From Candidatus Woesearchaeota archaeon (GTDB lineage Archaea; Nanobdellota; Nanobdellia; SCGC-AAA011-G17; UBA489), in assembly GCA_964343875.1 (NCBI GenBank), contig CAYFJW010000001.1:81345-145344 (forward strand): a stretch of 64,000 nt of DNA, given 5' to 3'. Below the pieces are notes generated by a model that did not search any database, had not been told where the DNA came from, and was given only the letters and a program-made list of their open reading frames with translations. This document shows positions 2,668-61,604 of the stretch, one piece after another. The translations under genes and the position numbers were made by a program. Position 1 is the first letter of the stretch. Every line of letters begins with the position of its first letter.

Positions 2668-3219
2668 ATGGAAAACAAAAAAGACAAAGGAATGAGTATC
2701 AAGATCGCCTTACCCGAAGGTACAACAGGAAACCTAGACGGAACAACCTTGACCATCAAAGGTTCTAACGGGGAAACAACCAGGGACTTCCTTAATCCAT
2801 TAGTAAACACCAAACTAAACAACAACGAAGTAGAGGTTTCAACCAAGTCTTCAAAAAGAAAGTTCACAAGAGAACTACACACTACTGAAGCCCACATTAA
2901 TAACATGATTCAAGGAGTCAAAGAAGGATTCACTTATGAATTAAAAATCTGTTCTGGACACTTCCCGATGACAGTTAAAAAAGAAGGAAACGAAGTTGTA
3001 ATTTCAAACTTCCTTGGAGAAAAAATCCCAAGGAGATCAAAAATAATTGAAGGCGTTGACCTTGAAATAAAAGGAGACGCAATCACAGTTAAATCACCAT
3101 GCATAGAGAAGGCAGGACAAACTGCAGCAAACCTAGAACATGCAACATTCATCAAGAAAAGAGATAGACGTGTTTTCCAGGATGGTTGTTACATAATCTC
3201 AAAACCACAACAAAAATGA
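2668..3219 (+). CDS. rpl6: 50S ribosomal protein uL6
   Basis: Two-domain uL6-like sequence of 183 aa in the expected operon position. Confidence 0.85.
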   Translation: MENKKDKGMSIKIALPEGTTGNLDGTTLTIKGSNGETTRDFLNPLVNTKLNNNEVEVSTKSSKRKFTRELHTTEAHINNMIQGVKEGFTYELKICSGHFPMTVKKEGNEVVISNFLGEKIPRRSKIIEGVDLEIKGDAITVKSPCIEKAGQTAANLEHATFIKKRDRRVFQDGCYIISKPQQK

Positions 3220-3788
3220 AAGAATTACTAAAAATAAGGAACACTGCAAAGGCAAAGAAGCCGACTTTCCTTAAACAGGATGCTCACCGCCTAGCAAAAC
3301 TAAGTGAAAACTGGAGACAACCAAAAGGGCAACATTCCAAACTAAGAAAGAAACTTAGAAGCTACAGAAGGCATCCTTCAATGGGATTTTCATCCCCTAA
3401 GGCTGTAAGGGGCCTAACCAGAGAAGGTCATGAATTAATCATAATCAACAATATTTCAGAACTAGAGGGAGTAAAAACTCCAATTGTGATTGGAGGATCT
3501 GTTGGCGACAGAAAAAGACTTGAAATCATAAAGAAATGTAATGAAAACAAAATTGAAGTCCTCAACATAAAGGATGTTAATGCCTACGTAAAAAATATTG
3601 AAGATGCAATGAAGAAAAAGAAAGAAGAAATAAAGAAAAGACATGATAAGAGAGCAAAGAAAGAAGCAGAAAAGAAGAAAGAAAATGAATCCAAAGAGAA
3701 AAAAGATGATAAAAAAGAAGTAGACACAGAAAAAGAAAAGAAGAAAACAGAAGAAGAAAAGAAGAAAATATTGGAGAAGAAGAATTAG
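3216..3788 (+). CDS. rpl32e: 50S ribosomal protein eL32 with a ~70-aa Lys/Glu-rich C-terminal extension
   Basis: Core KLRKKLRSYRRHPSMGFSSPKAVRGL is eL32-like. The tail KKKKEEIKKRHDKRAKKEAEKKKENESKEKKDD... is low-complexity. The ATG at 3216 overlaps the uL6 stop. Confidence 0.8.
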   Translation: MKELLKIRNTAKAKKPTFLKQDAHRLAKLSENWRQPKGQHSKLRKKLRSYRRHPSMGFSSPKAVRGLTREGHELIIINNISELEGVKTPIVIGGSVGDRKRLEIIKKCNENKIEVLNIKDVNAYVKNIEDAMKKKKEEIKKRHDKRAKKEAEKKKENESKEKKDDKKEVDTEKEKKKTEEEKKKILEKKN

Positions 3789-23413: not shown

Positions 23414-23737
23414 ATGACAAAGGAAAAACCAGAAAAGAAGACTGAAACAAGCGAGGCTCAAGACGACCATGTTGTTTTTGTTGGTGATAAGCCTTTTATG
23501 AACTATGTAACTGGGGTAGTGATGCAATTTACAACTCAGAGTGCAAAAGAATCAGTAATAAAGGCCAGAGGAAAATTCATTAGTAAGGCAGTAGATATTG
23601 CAGAAGTAGCAACAAAGAGATTTCTAGATGGAGAGGTTAACGTAAAAAACATATCCATAAACAGTGAAGAATTCAAAAATAAGGAAGGCAAAGAAGTAAG
23701 AGTATCTACTATTGAATTAACACTTGCAAAAAAGTAG
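23414..23737 (+). CDS. albA: DNA/RNA-binding protein Alba
   Basis: NYVTGVVMQF...VIKARGKFISKAVDIAE...RVSTIELTL fits the Alba fold signature. Confidence 0.85.
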   Translation: MTKEKPEKKTETSEAQDDHVVFVGDKPFMNYVTGVVMQFTTQSAKESVIKARGKFISKAVDIAEVATKRFLDGEVNVKNISINSEEFKNKEGKEVRVSTIELTLAKK

Positions 23738-26069: not shown

Positions 26070-26525
26070 CTATTCCCTTATTTTCTTGGCAAGAGCAGCC
26101 AGATCCTCATCACTTGCCCTCTTATAATCATGTGAAGATATATAGCCTTCATATTTGTCAAAATATTTATCCACGCTGGAAGCAATTTCTTTCCAGGATC
26201 CCATGCCCTCTGTCCCATGCATTGGGAATAATTTAGAGTGTACATGGTCTACACCGAAACCCTCAAAGAACATTCCAGTTCTTCCAACACCTTCCAACTT
26301 AGAATCTAAAAGTTTAGCAACTTTCTTTGTAGCTAGAACTAATGAACTAAGAACCTCATTCGGTAAGTCAAAGGCGTAACTTGAGTAATGTTTCTTTGGA
26401 ACAACAACAGAAAATCCCTTAGTATTTGGGAAAATAGATAAAAATGCAAGATGTTTCTCATCTTCCCAGATCTTATGGCATGGAACTTCACCAGAAATTA
26501 TCTTACAAAAAATGCAATCACTCAT
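26070..26525 (-). CDS. HIT-family hydrolase
   Basis: N-terminal CIFCKIISGEVPCHKIWEDEKHLAFLSIFPNTKGFSVVVPKKH. The histidine-triad region is variant (DHVHSKLFP). Confidence 0.75.
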   Translation of the reverse strand: MSDCIFCKIISGEVPCHKIWEDEKHLAFLSIFPNTKGFSVVVPKKHYSSYAFDLPNEVLSSLVLATKKVAKLLDSKLEGVGRTGMFFEGFGVDHVHSKLFPMHGTEGMGSWKEIASSVDKYFDKYEGYISSHDYKRASDEDLAALAKKIRE

Positions 26526-26754
26526 CTTCCTTTTCCCATGATTTAGCTAACTCTCTTAAATTCTTTATCAAACTTCTTTTCTTCGTTCTATTCACTTTTG
26601 GTTTTGTTAACTTAACTTTCTTCTTACTAACTTTCTTGGTTACCTTCTTCTTAATAGAACTATATTTTTTAGCTTCCCTAAACTTTCCTTTAACATTCTT
26701 CATCCGCCTCTTACCGGACTTCAAAGTTCTTCTACTCTTAGCTTTTCTCCCCAT
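26518..26754 (-). CDS. Small highly basic Lys/Arg-rich protein (nucleic-acid binding?)
   Basis: 78 aa, about 45 percent K+R. It overlaps the HIT gene start by 8 nt, which suggests an operon. Confidence 0.4.
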   Translation of the reverse strand: MGRKAKSRRTLKSGKRRMKNVKGKFREAKKYSSIKKKVTKKVSKKKVKLTKPKVNRTKKRSLIKNLRELAKSWEKEDE

Positions 26755-39924: not shown

Positions 39925-40680
39925 ATGATAGTTGATGTTCACTGCCATCTCTACTTCCCACAATTTGGGGAAGATATGGAAGAGGTAATAAAGAGAGCAG
40001 AATCAAATGGACTAGTCGCACTGGTCAATGCAGGTACGGACCACAAGTCAAATCTCAAGGTCCTAGAACTTTCTAAAAAGCACAAGATAGTCCAAGCAAC
40101 CCTAGGACTCTACCCAACAGAAGCATTAAAGATATCAGATAAAGAATTAGAAAAAGAAATTGGATTTATTAAAGAAAACAAAGACAACATTGTTGGAATT
40201 GGGGAAATTGGATTAGACTTTCAATTGACAAAAGAACCAAAACAACAACAAAGACAGATAGAAGTGTTCAAAAAACTAATTACTTCCTTGAGAGATATTA
40301 ACAAAACCTTCGTTATACACTCAAGAAAAGCAGAAAGGGAATGTGTAGAAATATTAGAAGAATTAAAGATAAAGAATGTTAACTTCCATTGTTTCTCTGG
40401 CAGTTTTAAGTTAGCAAAAAGGATAGAGTCCAATAATTGGACAATGTCAATACCCGCAAACATAGACAAAAGCCAACATTTTCAAGGAATTGTTGAACAA
40501 ACATCAATAAACAACTTATTAACAGAGACAGATGCACCATTTTTATCTCCATCGGGAAAGTCAAGATGTGAACCAAGCTTCGTCAAACAAACATTAAACA
40601 AGATAGCAGAAATAAAGAAGATGGATGTCAAGGAAGTTACAAATAATATCTATCTTAATTACCAAAAATTATTCTCATGA
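39925..40680 (+). CDS. tatD: TatD-family metal-dependent hydrolase/DNase
   Basis: MIVDVHCHLYFPQF...GIGEIGLDF...VIHSR...FHCFSG... are TatD motifs. Confidence 0.8.
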   Translation: MIVDVHCHLYFPQFGEDMEEVIKRAESNGLVALVNAGTDHKSNLKVLELSKKHKIVQATLGLYPTEALKISDKELEKEIGFIKENKDNIVGIGEIGLDFQLTKEPKQQQRQIEVFKKLITSLRDINKTFVIHSRKAERECVEILEELKIKNVNFHCFSGSFKLAKRIESNNWTMSIPANIDKSQHFQGIVEQTSINNLLTETDAPFLSPSGKSRCEPSFVKQTLNKIAEIKKMDVKEVTNNIYLNYQKLFS

Positions 40681-40833
40681 CACAAAAACCTTTAACTTTT
40701 TCTTAATGTTTTAGTGATAACTCATAAAATATGATCTAACATATAAACAGAAAACTATTTAAGGAAAAATACATCTAAAAATTGCAGGACACCCAATTCA
40801 TTGTCCTTATCATATACGAATGAACGAATAAAA

Positions 40834-40840
40834 GAGGTGA
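40834..40840 (+). promoter_or_regulatory. Shine-Dalgarno-like GAGGTGA, 7 nt upstream of the ATG at 40848
   Basis: It is complementary to the 16S 3' end CCUCC. This supports frame B of the overlapping repeat ORFs. Confidence 0.5.
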
Positions 40841-40847
40841 AAAAGAA

Positions 40848-41090
40848 ATGGTTGCAAGAAGAAGAACAGCAAGAAAAACTACTAGAAGAAGAAAAACTAC
40901 TGCTAGGAAAACTACTAGAAGAAGAAAAACTACTGCTAGGAAAACTACTAGAAGAAGAAAAACTACTGCTAGGAAAACTACTAGAAGAAGAAAGACAGCT
41001 GCAAAGACAACAACTCGAAGAAGAACTAGAAGAAGGAAAACCGCTGCAAAGACAACAACTAGAAGAAGAGTTAGAAGAAGGAGACGTTAA
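40848..41090 (+). CDS. Tandem-repeat-encoded ultra-basic Arg/Thr/Lys-rich protein (80 aa)
   Basis: Encoded by three perfect 33-bp repeats (TTARKTTRRRK) and two ~45-bp repeats. Strong SD and ATG. A second frame (TTG at 40801) stays open through the same repeats. Confidence 0.5.
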   Translation: MVARRRTARKTTRRRKTTARKTTRRRKTTARKTTRRRKTTARKTTRRRKTAAKTTTRRRTRRRKTAAKTTTRRRVRRRRR

Positions 41091-41114
41091 GTCTCTTTCA
41101 ACTTTTTTTAATTT

Positions 41115-41762
41115 CTAAATATTTATTACAATTCCGCTATCACCTGGGTTAATTAATTTACTCCCATTAATACTATCTCTCTTAAGGAAAGTTTCATGAA
41201 AATGCCCAGAAGCAAAAACTTTCGGTTTTAAAGTCTCAATGGCCTTCCTAACACTTTTAGACCCCCTGTGCCCCAAAAGAGGCAATTCATCTAGCTTGGT
41301 TTCATAAGGAGGGGCATGTGTAAATAAAACCAGTTTACCTTTTATTTTTGGTTTCAAATTACTAACCCATACATCAAACTGTTTGTTTGTTTCATCAAAA
41401 CCGCCACCACCATAACCTGCAAATGTTACACCATCAATTGTTAAACACTTCTTGTGTAGAAAAACAACTTGTTCACCATCACACAACTTCTTCAATTCAG
41501 AACCACTTTCGTGATTCCCATGTATAACCAATAACTTTTTACCAGCCTTTTTAATCATATCAATTGCTTCTTCCAATCCGGAACCAAAGAAACTCAAATC
41601 ACCGCAACAAACCATCAAATCACATTCCTTACTCTTCTCAACAATAACACTAACTTTCTTTTCTAGTTCTTCAACATCTGTGACATAATACTCATCAGAA
41701 CTCTCCCCAGAGTGTACATCGGTGAAAAATAATACCTTCATCCAATGCAGACTACAAAACAC
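41115..41762 (-). CDS. Calcineurin-like metallophosphoesterase
   Basis: Motifs FFTDVHSG, CCGDL, GNHE and SGHFHE. Confidence 0.8.
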   Translation of the reverse strand: MFCSLHWMKVLFFTDVHSGESSDEYYVTDVEELEKKVSVIVEKSKECDLMVCCGDLSFFGSGLEEAIDMIKKAGKKLLVIHGNHESGSELKKLCDGEQVVFLHKKCLTIDGVTFAGYGGGGFDETNKQFDVWVSNLKPKIKGKLVLFTHAPPYETKLDELPLLGHRGSKSVRKAIETLKPKVFASGHFHETFLKRDSINGSKLINPGDSGIVINI

Positions 41763-41784: not shown

Positions 41785-41979
41785 CTAAGCACCTAGATAT
41801 CCACTCATGAATCCACTCTCAAGCGGACTAATCTCATCATTCTCTTCCAAACATTCCAGCGAATCTCTATCGTAGAAATCAGCATCAAAATTATCCGTAT
41901 TAAGACTTCTCAACCTCTCACCCGTTATTTTCTCAATATTCTCATGACTTAAATCTATTTTAATGATCACTTGGATCAC
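41785..41979 (-). CDS. Hypothetical small acidic protein
   Basis: 64 aa, downstream of orc1 in the same orientation. No family recognised. Confidence 0.3.
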   Translation of the reverse strand: MIQVIIKIDLSHENIEKITGERLRSLNTDNFDADFYDRDSLECLEENDEISPLESGFMSGYLGA

Positions 41980-49945: not shown

Positions 49946-51189
49946 CATACAAGCCTCACGTATCAAAAGAAAAAAAGGATGAAATAGCAGAAATAAAGAG
50001 ATTGTTCAAAGAGTACAAGGTGGCCGGTATTGTTAACCTAGAAGGCTTACCGACACTAATGCTTCAAAGAATCAAATTCTCACTAGGAGATTCAATCTAC
50101 CTAAAACCAACTAAAAAAAGATTAATAAAAATTGCATTCGATGATATGAAAGATCAAAAAAACATAGATCAACTTAAGGAAAAACTAAGAGGGATTCCAG
50201 CATTACTATTTACAAACGAAGATCCATTCATTCTTTACAAAAAACTAGAAAAAAGTAAAGCCTCAGCAGCAGCAAAACCAGGACAAACCGCTCCAAATGA
50301 TTTGGGTGTTGAAGCAGGTGAAACTCCTTTCGCACCAGGTCCAATGATTGGAGAACTTGGAATGCTTGGACTAAAAACAGAAGTTAAAGATGGAAAGATT
50401 CACATAAAAGATGACAAGGTCCTAGTCAGGGAAGGGGATGAAATTTCTGAACAAGTTGCAGGATTACTTGCAAAGATGGGCGTTGAACCAATGAAGATTG
50501 GTTTGAATTTACTATTAACATATGAAAACGGAGAAATCCTAGAAAAATCAGTATTATCTATTGATGAGGAAGAATACATCAACAACCTAAAGGCAGCACA
50601 CTCCGAATCATTAGCACTAGCAATGCACTTAGGAATATTAAACTCAGAAACAATTAAACCATTAATCAGCAAAGCACAAAGCGAATCTCTAGCATTGGCA
50701 GATTCAGCAGATATAATTACATCTGGGAACGTTGGGAAGATTTTAGCTAAAGCTGAAGCAGCAGCTTCGGCCCTAGAATCAAAAGTTCCGGAAGCTCCCA
50801 AAGAAGAAGTTAAAGAGCAACCAAAGGAACCAGTAAAAGAAGAACCAAAAGAGACTCCTGCTGAAGCTCCCAAAGAAGAAGTTAAGGAAGAACCAAGGGA
50901 GCAACCAAAAGAAGAAGTTAAGGAGACTCCCAAGGAAGAACCAGTAAAAGAAGAAAAACAACCAGAATCAGAAGAAAAAAAGCCCGTAGAAGAGCCAGAG
51001 AAGGCCCCAGAAGACAAACCTAAAGAAATAAAAAAGGATATGGAAGAACTTACAGATATTGCAAACAAGGTGCTTGGCACAGGAATAAAAGGGGATTCAG
51101 AGGCTTCAAAAGAGCCAAAAGCTGAAGAACAAGACGTAAACAAACTTATTAATACTCTCAAAGATAAGAAAAGCAAAGGAGAGACTTAA
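49942..51189 (+). CDS. rplP0: 50S ribosomal protein uL10 (acidic protein P0) with an extended PKEE-repeat C-terminal region
   Basis: The N-terminal P0 domain, then about 100 aa of EVKEQPKEPVKEEPKETPAEAPKEEVKEEP... repeats. Confidence 0.85.
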   Translation: MTYKPHVSKEKKDEIAEIKRLFKEYKVAGIVNLEGLPTLMLQRIKFSLGDSIYLKPTKKRLIKIAFDDMKDQKNIDQLKEKLRGIPALLFTNEDPFILYKKLEKSKASAAAKPGQTAPNDLGVEAGETPFAPGPMIGELGMLGLKTEVKDGKIHIKDDKVLVREGDEISEQVAGLLAKMGVEPMKIGLNLLLTYENGEILEKSVLSIDEEEYINNLKAAHSESLALAMHLGILNSETIKPLISKAQSESLALADSADIITSGNVGKILAKAEAAASALESKVPEAPKEEVKEQPKEPVKEEPKETPAEAPKEEVKEEPREQPKEEVKETPKEEPVKEEKQPESEEKKPVEEPEKAPEDKPKEIKKDMEELTDIANKVLGTGIKGDSEASKEPKAEEQDVNKLINTLKDKKSKGET

Positions 51190-61506: not shown

Positions 61507-61604
61507 CGGACCCGATAGGATTTGAACCTACGACCTTCTGCTCACTTCTGAGTCCGAAGACTTAATAGAAGGCAGACGCTCTATCCAAACTGAGCTACGG
61601 GCCC
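61507..61604 (-). tRNA. tRNA-Arg (anticodon TCT) with a ~23-nt canonical-position intron
   Basis: GGGCCCG acceptor (G3:U70), D-arm GCTCAGTTTGGATAGAGC, anticodon stem TCTGC...GCAGA. The mature loop is CTTCTAA after removal of TTAAGTCTTCGGACTCAGAAGTG. The intron pairs with the anticodon in a BHB-like arrangement. The gene lies 2 nt from tRNA-Cys. Confidence 0.65.

Follow-up and report, generated by a model that had tools for sequence, protein, structure and literature searches.

A repeat-built arginine/threonine/lysine polycation of marine DPANN archaea, a candidate nucleic acid-binding protein resembling linker histone tails and protamines

A 64,000-nucleotide stretch of a Candidatus Woesearchaeota archaeon genome (assembly GCA_964343875.1, contig CAYFJW010000001.1, positions 81,345 to 145,344 of the forward strand), hereafter termed the window, harbours a short gene composed largely of tandem repeats, which encodes an extremely basic protein (the polycation). 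The polycation open reading frame (ORF) spans 40848–41090 on the + strand and comprises 80 codons, from the ATG at 40848 to the TAA stop codon at 41088–41090. The gene lies between the genes for a TatD-family hydrolase (39925–40680, +) and a calcineurin-like metallophosphoesterase (41115–41762, −), the latter convergently oriented and featuring generic calcineurin-like motifs only. A Cdc6/Orc1 gene is found 1 kb beyond the metallophosphoesterase side of the polycation gene. In this article we describe the gene, its relatives and its repeat alleles, and discuss which function its product might serve.

The product of 80 amino acids (aa) reads MVARRRTARK-(TTRRRKTTARK)x3-TTRRRKTAAKTTTRRRTRRRKTAAKTTTRRRVRRRRR, and its start, end, composition and synteny are shared with the orthologs outlined below. 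It consists of 33 Arg, 24 Thr, 11 Lys, 9 Ala, 2 Val and 1 Met, i.e., 41% Arg, 30% Thr, 14% Lys and 11% Ala. Arg and Lys together account for 55% of the residues, while Asp and Glu are absent, as are aromatic and large hydrophobic residues. The net charge amounts to +44, and the calculated isoelectric point of 12.0 is the ceiling of the calculator. Furthermore, the protein sequence contains neither a signal peptide nor a hydrophobic stretch, Cys, Pro or Ser. An earlier interpretation made from the letters of the DNA (the sequence-only reading) had described a gene of 80 aa with an ATG at 40848 and a strong GAGGTGA Shine-Dalgarno (SD) motif, and the sequence is as described. Its estimate of roughly one third Arg is too low. 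The same reading proposed a surface element or an “RS-like” protein. The former is at odds with the lack of any hydrophobic segment, the latter with the lack of Ser in the 80-aa protein; a single Ser occurs in one ortholog lineage, and there are no Arg-Ser runs.

The preference for Arg is a peculiarity of this gene. The Arg:Lys ratio is 3.0 in the polycation versus 0.37 in the 52 other ORFs of the window, the GC content of which is 36.7%. The Arg excess runs against the genomic bias and is not a mutational side effect. In protamines, Arg makes guanidinium-phosphate contacts with DNA, and by analogy the Arg enrichment points to selection for such contacts. A structure prediction with AlphaFold2, run without an alignment on 40848–41087, yielded one continuous helix of 77 residues with a best mean predicted local distance difference test score of 92.6 (five models spanning 51.6–92.6). 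This single-sequence helix probably reflects over-confidence of the predictor on a charged low-complexity sequence and provides no evidence for a stable fold; conceivably, the polycation might adopt helicity upon DNA binding.

The coding sequence is built around two tandem arrays, which are the strongest tandem repeats of the window according to Tandem Repeats Finder. A direct scan delimits a perfect 33-bp array (11 codons, TTRRRKTTARK) of 3.6 copies and 119 bp at 40875–40993 (+), which constitutes the copy-number-variable part of the gene. Tandem Repeats Finder, tolerating mismatches, reports a period of 33 with 4.6 copies, 93% matches and a score of 246 at 40875–41025. The second array is an imperfect 45-bp repeat (15 codons, KTAAKTTTRRR[T/V]RRR) at 40980–41082 (+), for which the program gives 2.3 copies and 89% matches. 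The gene had been portrayed as consisting entirely of perfect repeats. The repeats are there, and the 33-bp array is indeed perfect, but the first ~9 and the last ~4 codons are not repeat-derived, and five mismatches separate the two 45-bp units.

The gene is embedded in a set of conserved expression signals. Upstream lies a 26-nt promoter-like block, AACAGAAAACTATTTAAGGAAAAATA (40746–40771, +; 77–102 nt before the ATG), which is unique in the window and invariant in six aligned lineages, with variable flanks. The block includes a sequence resembling a B recognition element and TATA box, CTATTTAAGG (40755–40764, 92 nt upstream of the ATG), similar to the TTTTTAAG/TTTTAAA boxes located ~30–35 nt upstream of tRNA-Ala and tRNA-Met in the window. 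We infer that the 26-nt block is an archaeal promoter. Some 25–30 nt past the TATA-like box, at the expected transcription start, follows an inverted repeat, GGACA-N10-TGTCC (40787–40806, +), which includes the invariant 12-mer AATTCATTGTCC (40795–40806) and is conserved with one G-U change in lineage L052. The inverted repeat could form a 5' stem-loop or serve as an operator. Each orthologous locus contains a single copy of the 12-mer, which is absent from the remainder of the fetched loci; a regulon defined by the palindrome was dismissed, as the window contains no other exact copy of it.

The SD sequence AGAGGTGAA (40833–40841, +), with GAGGTGA at 40834–40840, ends 7 nt before the ATG and is invariant in all lineages; no other GAGGTGA with an ATG at SD distance exists in the window. 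At the distal end, a terminator-like hairpin, GAAGGAGAC-GTTAA-GTCTCTTTC (41077–41109, +), has a 9-bp stem with the stop codon in its loop and is followed by a run of seven T. The hairpin is kept in all lineages, L052 maintaining the stem through different bases, and the last codons (AGA AGG AGA CGT TAA) do not vary, even in their nucleotides. Thus, as judged from these motifs, the gene appears to possess its own promoter, a strong SD and a terminator made of a hairpin and a T-run.

Orthologs were identified using the metallophosphoesterase as an anchor and inspecting the contigs that encode its homologs, some of which carry the NCBI name “Candidatus Woesearchaeota archaeon”. Between metallophosphoesterase and TatD, a small gene is present where the anchor protein identity is 84, 84, 81, 65, 61, 55 or 54%. 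The lineage at 54% is represented by a gene call (129 aa) without DNA, and the other lineages were read as sequence. Syntenic orthologs come from six further lineages. At anchor identities of 43% or less, the neighbourhood differs and the polycation gene is absent. A TatD scan of a genome collection retrieved relatives of at most 44% identity, the closest from a “Nanoarchaeota archaeon” metagenome-assembled genome, with no basic gene at the locus. The polycation gene is restricted to one clade of marine DPANN archaea, and NCBI lists some of their genomes as “Candidatus Woesearchaeota”. A marine water-column origin is suggested for some related contigs by record names such as “SI53jan11_150m”, and for some homologs by their Tara sources.

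When re-translated from its GAGGTG...ATG, each ortholog yields a protein of 65–128 aa that starts with MVARR[RK]T and ends with RRRR. The orthologs employ exclusively Arg, Thr, Lys, Ala and Val, plus one Ser in one lineage, and no Asp or Glu. Regardless of length, Arg and Lys make up a constant 48–55% (55% in the window, 48–53% in the orthologs), and including the alleles of the window species, the proteins range from 58 to 128 aa. In spite of differing repeat units, all lineages keep the basic frame open. Owing to the conserved ATG, SD, termini and synteny, the gene is regarded as genuine: on comparative sequence evidence it is real and conserved, and the Arg/Thr/Lys frame is the one translated. 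As the whole ~10-kb neighbourhood is syntenic, the adjacency to the metallophosphoesterase and TatD genes carries no specific signal, and a functional link to either enzyme was dropped.

A second frame runs through the same repeats. The overlapping +1-frame ORF (40801–41118, +) starts with a TTG, comprises 105 aa of an LLEEEK-type sequence and, together with the basic frame, led the sequence-only reading to propose two simultaneously open frames. Both are open in the window, and gene callers picked the +1 frame in the records behind L045, L046, L047, L054, L056 and L057. Yet, the idea that the LLEEEK frame is the coding one, or that both frames are translated, is hardly credible. The +1 frame is interrupted by internal stops in three of seven lineages (one stop in L042–44, two in L048–51 and three in L052/53), it lacks an ATG or SD, and its TTG lies within the 5' leader. 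Moreover, its sequence is not conserved between lineages (LLLVRQREEEFV versus LLEEEKLLLGK).

The openness of this frame is readily explained by composition. A stop in the +1 frame requires a T at position 2 of a basic-frame codon, and almost no codon in the window has one: only 3 of the 80 sense codons do (the ATG and two GTT), and none of these is followed by bases completing a +1 stop. The +1 stops of the relatives arise where a GTA codon for Val precedes an A. One reverse frame is open for the same compositional reason and contains no start codon, whereas the +2 frame accumulates 7–16 stops in all lineages. Nucleotide differences between lineages likewise spare the basic frame. A GCA/GCT change is silent there and replaces Gln by Leu in the +1 frame, an AGA/AAA change is conservative (Arg/Lys) there and exchanges Glu for Lys in the +1 frame, and a GCA/GTA change substitutes Val for Ala there and creates a stop in the +1 frame. 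The former two changes fall at the N-terminus of the orthologs in the nucleotide alignment. A dual-coding overlapping gene was rejected, given that the second frame is neither kept open nor conserved in sequence, and the +1-frame ORF is best described as a compositional by-product.

The basic frame, in turn, appears to constrain how the repeats evolve. Each lineage uses a perfect unit of its own: 33 bp in the window, 111 bp in L042, 45 bp in L046, 24 bp in L048–50, 39 bp in L052 and 63 bp in L055. All six periods are multiples of 3, which for six independent non-coding repeats would be expected with a chance of ~(1/3)^6. The length differences between alleles (66, 111, 45, 24, 24 and 102 bp) are divisible by 3 as well, and within one species, assemblies differ solely by whole repeat units. 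Since the units are lineage-own and all multiples of 3, expansion is recent, lineage-specific and frame-constrained. The recent expansion suggested by the sequence-only reading is therefore borne out, and the repeats keep changing. A phase-variable contingency locus, which had also been proposed, is ruled out by the same periods and indels: every allele stays in frame, and what varies is length rather than an on/off state.

The window species itself provides three alleles with identical flanks, and thus, the suggested check for copy-number variation between strains turned out positive. The 80-aa allele (window and ENA ERZ930068) contains 3.6 copies of the 33-bp unit, the 69-aa allele (ERZ930066, L061) 2.6 copies and the 58-aa allele (GCA_973416385.1, L002/L060) 1.6 copies. 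The 80- and 69-aa alleles reside on contigs with the prefix “k127_”, which by MEGAHIT convention denotes a final k of 127. With 119 and 86 bp, the arrays fit within this k, and the copy numbers of the two alleles are therefore directly supported. The caveat that the repeats might represent an assembly collapse accordingly does not apply to these alleles, and it stands for the 58-aa allele, which could be either real or collapsed. A third sample from that project has contigs that enter the array from either side and end within it (L003, L062), which suggests a longer or mixed array there. The lineage at 65% anchor identity is similarly polymorphic. Its alleles (L048 lineage) encode 128, 120, 112 and 78 aa, and L048 and L049, both on “k141_” contigs, are two 24-bp units apart, with arrays of 131 and 83 bp.

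Public short-read contigs frequently end inside the repeat array (L003, L004, L005, L007, L045, L054, L056, L057, L062–L064). These breaks and the Cdc6/Orc1 gene 1 kb away might hint at a locus that is not a gene, i.e., an assembly artefact or non-coding, iteron-like repeat DNA. This explanation deserves next to no credence, however, as the basic frame stays open across lineages with different units, periods and indels obey the triplet rule, and ATG, SD and termini are conserved. Furthermore, single 127-mers span the array in two independent assemblies. A role as replication origin or iteron was discarded, since neither a turn in GC skew nor repeats resembling origin recognition boxes are apparent around cdc6.

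Database searches place the polycation in no known family. HC2 (PF07382) is the sole Pfam model that touches the 80-aa protein (17.1 bits, E 0.0064, against a gathering cut-off of 40 bits). Among the NCBIfam models, NF038053 (hist_H1_lk_Burk) scores 16.6 bits against a cut-off of 80 bits, and NF038052 (histone_lik_HC2) reaches 11.9 bits against 135 bits. These H1-like models are the only family matches. The archaeal chromatin families with a histone fold, Alba, MC1, Cren7 and Sul7d show no similarity to the 80-aa protein in Pfam and PDB. PHROGs and PDB sequence searches gave no matches either. At a significance threshold of E<=0.001, nothing significant was found by a single-sequence search over 5.8 billion proteins, by phmmer over 1.84 billion representatives or by a protein database search with a profile of the six orthologs. 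Moreover, neither of the two alleles of the window species that were looked up was found by exact cluster look-up in a collection of 15 billion proteins.

The profile search returned solely weak matches to HU proteins with HC2-like tails and to phasin-like and membrane-anchored basic proteins. HU fusions are represented by P0041–47 with PF00216. Three of the matches carry basic repeats of the TTARK/STARR type, fused to a C-terminal membrane anchor (P0040), fused to a phasin-like domain (P0049) or positioned N-terminal to an HU domain (P0044). Judged from such architectures, the TTARK/STARR repeat looks like a widely reused module that would bind polyanions.

A local control explains why the protein searches are uninformative. 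True orthologs would reach up to E~1e-9 in phmmer, yet unrelated bacterial repeat proteins score equally well, and consequently, the program cannot separate orthologs from bacterial look-alikes. The look-alikes themselves emerged from a metagenome scan with the repeat peptide, which recovered 28 loci. All of them are bacterial with 52–74% GC, and there are no relatives of the polycation among them. They carry KTTARK/TTRRRK repeats in stand-alone proteins (L020, 94 aa; L027 with ARKTTRRRKTAARK) or in tails at the C-terminus of HU-like domains (L031, L034 and L037), tails of the mycobacterial MDP1/HupB type being an example of such an arrangement. The peptide motifs of these high-GC bacterial proteins are nearly identical to those of the window protein, and the HU fusions tie the repeat to DNA-binding proteins. 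In contrast, the bacterial loci differ in GC content (52–74% versus 37% here) and share neither synteny nor the MVARR start or RRRR end. Since look-alikes score like true orthologs, the similarity is, by sequence comparison, one of convergent low complexity.

These results bear on two points of the sequence-only reading. The recommended search of the repeat peptide against databases yielded nothing significant among proteins, and look-alikes in high-GC bacteria by way of the metagenome scan. The view that such a protein is unusual needs a qualification: near-identical KTTARK/TTRRRK proteins are common in high-GC bacteria, although a limited literature search found no protamine-like or H1-like protein described in archaea or DPANN.

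Several known systems resemble the polycation in how they are built. The C-terminal domain of histone H1, sperm protamines and the baculovirus protein P6.9 contain ~40–70% basic residues along with small hydroxyl residues, lack acidic residues and are disordered when free. These proteins condense DNA, and phosphorylation of Ser/Thr regulates binding. The 80-aa protein, of low complexity and with 55% Arg and Lys and neither Asp nor Glu, has the composition of this H1-/protamine-like class, for which basic residues should reach about 40% or more. It differs in its archaeal host and in lacking a winged-helix domain, Cys, Ser and sequence homology. By its mode of action the polycation is grouped with H1- and protamine-like polycations, and it is in none of their sequence families.

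Among bacterial proteins, Hc2 (HctB) of Chlamydia trachomatis is a DNA-binding protein that varies from 165 to 237 aa between strains through duplication and deletion of repeats (PMC2848022). Hc2 and the window protein are both stand-alone, very basic and of low complexity, and they feature in-frame tandem repeats and strain size variation. Hc2 binds and condenses DNA, whereas DNA binding by the window protein is proposed by analogy. Moreover, Hc2 is bacterial, Lys/Ala-rich, composed of pentamer/36-aa elements and about twice as long, whereas the window protein is archaeal and Arg/Thr-rich. Judging from the two sequences, the resemblance is compositional, not homologous.

A similar pattern is seen in Pseudomonas AlgP/AlgR3 and PhaF and in Bordetella BpH1, histone-H1-like repeat proteins that bind polyanions (nucleoid, polyphosphate granules; PMC9239181), where KPAA-type Lys/Pro/Ala repeats are appended to a folded N-terminal domain, while the window protein has neither Pro nor a folded domain. 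The C-terminal tandem-repeat domain of AlgP has been reported as a mutational hot spot (PMC9239181). In-frame size variation between strains, a trait of repeat proteins of the Hc2/AlgP/BpH1 type, is found in the window protein as well, but the short Lys/Ala/Pro repeats (KPAA, AAKK pentamers) are not; instead, Arg:Lys is 3:1, Thr reaches 30% and the units comprise 11 and 15 residues. In the mycobacterial protein MDP1, a polycationic disordered region is required for DNA compaction (PMC10810275).

Taken together, we lean, with modest confidence and by analogy with these proteins, towards a disordered polycation that binds and condenses or bridges nucleic acid, most likely DNA, or another polyanion. 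The protein would probably be unstructured when free and would bind without sequence specificity, neutralising the charge of a polyanion, with DNA as the most likely target. It might then act as a condensing or bridging nucleoid protein in the manner of the H1 C-terminal tail, protamines, Hc2 or the basic tails of actinobacterial HU, next to the Alba protein encoded elsewhere in the window. Slippage or unequal recombination would add and remove repeat units. Hence, length and total charge vary by strain, whereas charge density stays at about one positive charge per two residues, and the charge per molecule would be set by the number of repeats. It may be speculated that the Thr residues serve as phosphorylation sites tuning the binding. 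The protamine-like, chromatin or RNA-binding role envisaged by the sequence-only reading thus stays the best functional reading, one drawn from composition only.

Alba was detected by a tblastn search with archaeal chromatin reference sequences, and a separate Alba gene was the only hit in the window. This Sso10b-like gene is located at 23468–23734 (+) (E 3e-21, 44% identity; translation checked). Apart from the polycation, the organism accordingly encodes at least one nucleoid protein of the classical archaeal kind. Woesearchaeota are reported to possess histones and Alba (PMC6136690), and therefore, the polycation would constitute an additional layer rather than the sole chromatin protein. 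A more ambitious version of the proposal would make the polycation the first equivalent of a linker-histone tail or protamine in archaea, i.e., a free-standing Arg/Thr polycation atop histone/Alba chromatin in small-genome marine DPANN archaea, with a charge dose that natural populations tune by rapid gain and loss of in-frame repeats and perhaps switch by Thr phosphorylation. We consider this version tentative and rather doubtful.

A number of points weigh against the assignment as a DNA-condensing polycation. The matches to H1-like models remain far under their cut-offs and reflect composition only, and since orthologs are inseparable from bacterial repeat proteins by score, function cannot be transferred by homology. 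Assembly collapse could account for the short alleles L043 and L047, as well as for the 58-aa allele. With an Alba gene in the window and reported histones, an extra DNA condenser is not obviously needed. Finally, Arg-rich low-complexity regions are more often linked to RNA binding and Lys-rich ones to DNA (PMC6821194).

The last point leads to the main rival, a role related to RNA or the ribosome, where the protein is real and its partner is RNA, be it as an Arg-rich RNA chaperone, a ribosome- or rRNA-associated factor or the scaffold of a ribonucleoprotein condensate. The dominance of Arg over Lys (ratio 3.0) agrees with the enrichment of Arg-rich low-complexity regions in RNA-binding proteins (PMC6821194). 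Translation genes (eIF5A, pseudouridine synthase, rRNA methyltransferase) lie nearby, and the 5' leader, which is conserved and structured, might enable the gene to regulate itself in the manner of ribosomal protein operons. Yet, the neighbourhood is merely syntenic housekeeping DNA, and no ribosomal or RNA-binding family in Pfam, NCBIfam or PDB matches the 80-aa protein. Length variation of up to 60% (78–128 aa) is hard to reconcile with a fixed place in the ribosome, and Arg also occurs in DNA binders, namely protamines and the TTARK tails of bacterial HU. We therefore rate an RNA partner as unlikely, albeit worth weighing.

Two minor rivals concern partners other than nucleic acids. The polycation might bind polyphosphate or another polyanion and act as an organiser of granules or condensates, a role that has been proposed for the AlgP tail with its H1-like character. 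The KPAA-repeat tail of AlgP is found at the nucleoid and at polyphosphate granules (PMC9239181), and a phasin-like protein with the same type of basic repeats was among the weak profile matches. However, AlgP and PhaF have a folded domain that is lacking here, and no polyphosphate kinase or granule gene is seen near the locus, which renders this role improbable. Alternatively, an episymbiotic DPANN cell might export an Arg-rich, cell-penetrating or antimicrobial peptide directed at its host, with an arms race as the cause of the repeat variation. Dependence on a host is common among DPANN archaea, Arg-rich peptides cross membranes, and the rapid repeat turnover and strain polymorphism are reminiscent of contingency loci. 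But a signal peptide, a hydrophobic stretch or Cys are missing, no secretion genes are adjacent, and termini and charge density are strictly conserved instead of diversifying, so that an exported peptide appears very improbable.

Other features of the window are recorded here in their own right. Between Cdc6 and the metallophosphoesterase, every lineage encodes an acidic protein of 61–66 aa without a Pfam match (window, 41785–41970, −; L042, 3772–3957; L046, 3757–3957; L049, 3772–3957; L052, 3356–3541; L055, 3767–3964), which bears an invariant C-terminal LE(E/D)ND.I...E.GFM.GY motif. To regard it as a partner or chaperone of the polycation is pure speculation. Ribosomal protein L32e (3186–3788, +) has a ~70-residue Lys/Glu-rich C-terminal extension derived from tandem repeats (3611–3768), and the ribosomal stalk protein P0/L10 (49942–51189, +) contains a long PKEE/VKEE-type tandem-repeat region before its C-terminus (50791–50993); expanded repeats of charged residues seem to be frequent in this genome. 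A Lys-rich ORF of 78 aa (26518–26754, −), flanked by a HIT-family gene and tRNA-Ala, has 44% Arg and Lys and no Pfam match, and may be another small basic protein or spurious. A 98-nt tRNA at 61507–61604 (−), recognised by Rfam (58.8 bits), unreported by ARAGORN and situated 2 nt from tRNA-Cys, is probably an intron-containing archaeal tRNA.

The interest of the polycation lies chiefly in archaeal chromatin biology, as well as in the example it provides of a systematically lost class of genes. Such genes are lost by gene calls in the wrong frame, by contig breaks or possible collapse of the arrays during assembly and by the composition correction of HMMER, and in combination these factors imply that proteins of this kind are systematically missed in protein databases. 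Public assemblies do contain orthologs of the polycation, yet two exhaustive protein searches retrieved nothing significant. The polycation shares repeat-driven size polymorphism with bacterial H1-like proteins. If its proposed role is true, an entire clade of marine DPANN archaea possesses a polycationic nucleic acid-binding protein that has escaped annotation, is probably well expressed and lies outside the catalogued archaeal chromatin families. Should it indeed be a counterpart of linker histones and protamines, it would represent an independently evolved, H1-like layer of chromatin compaction in archaea.

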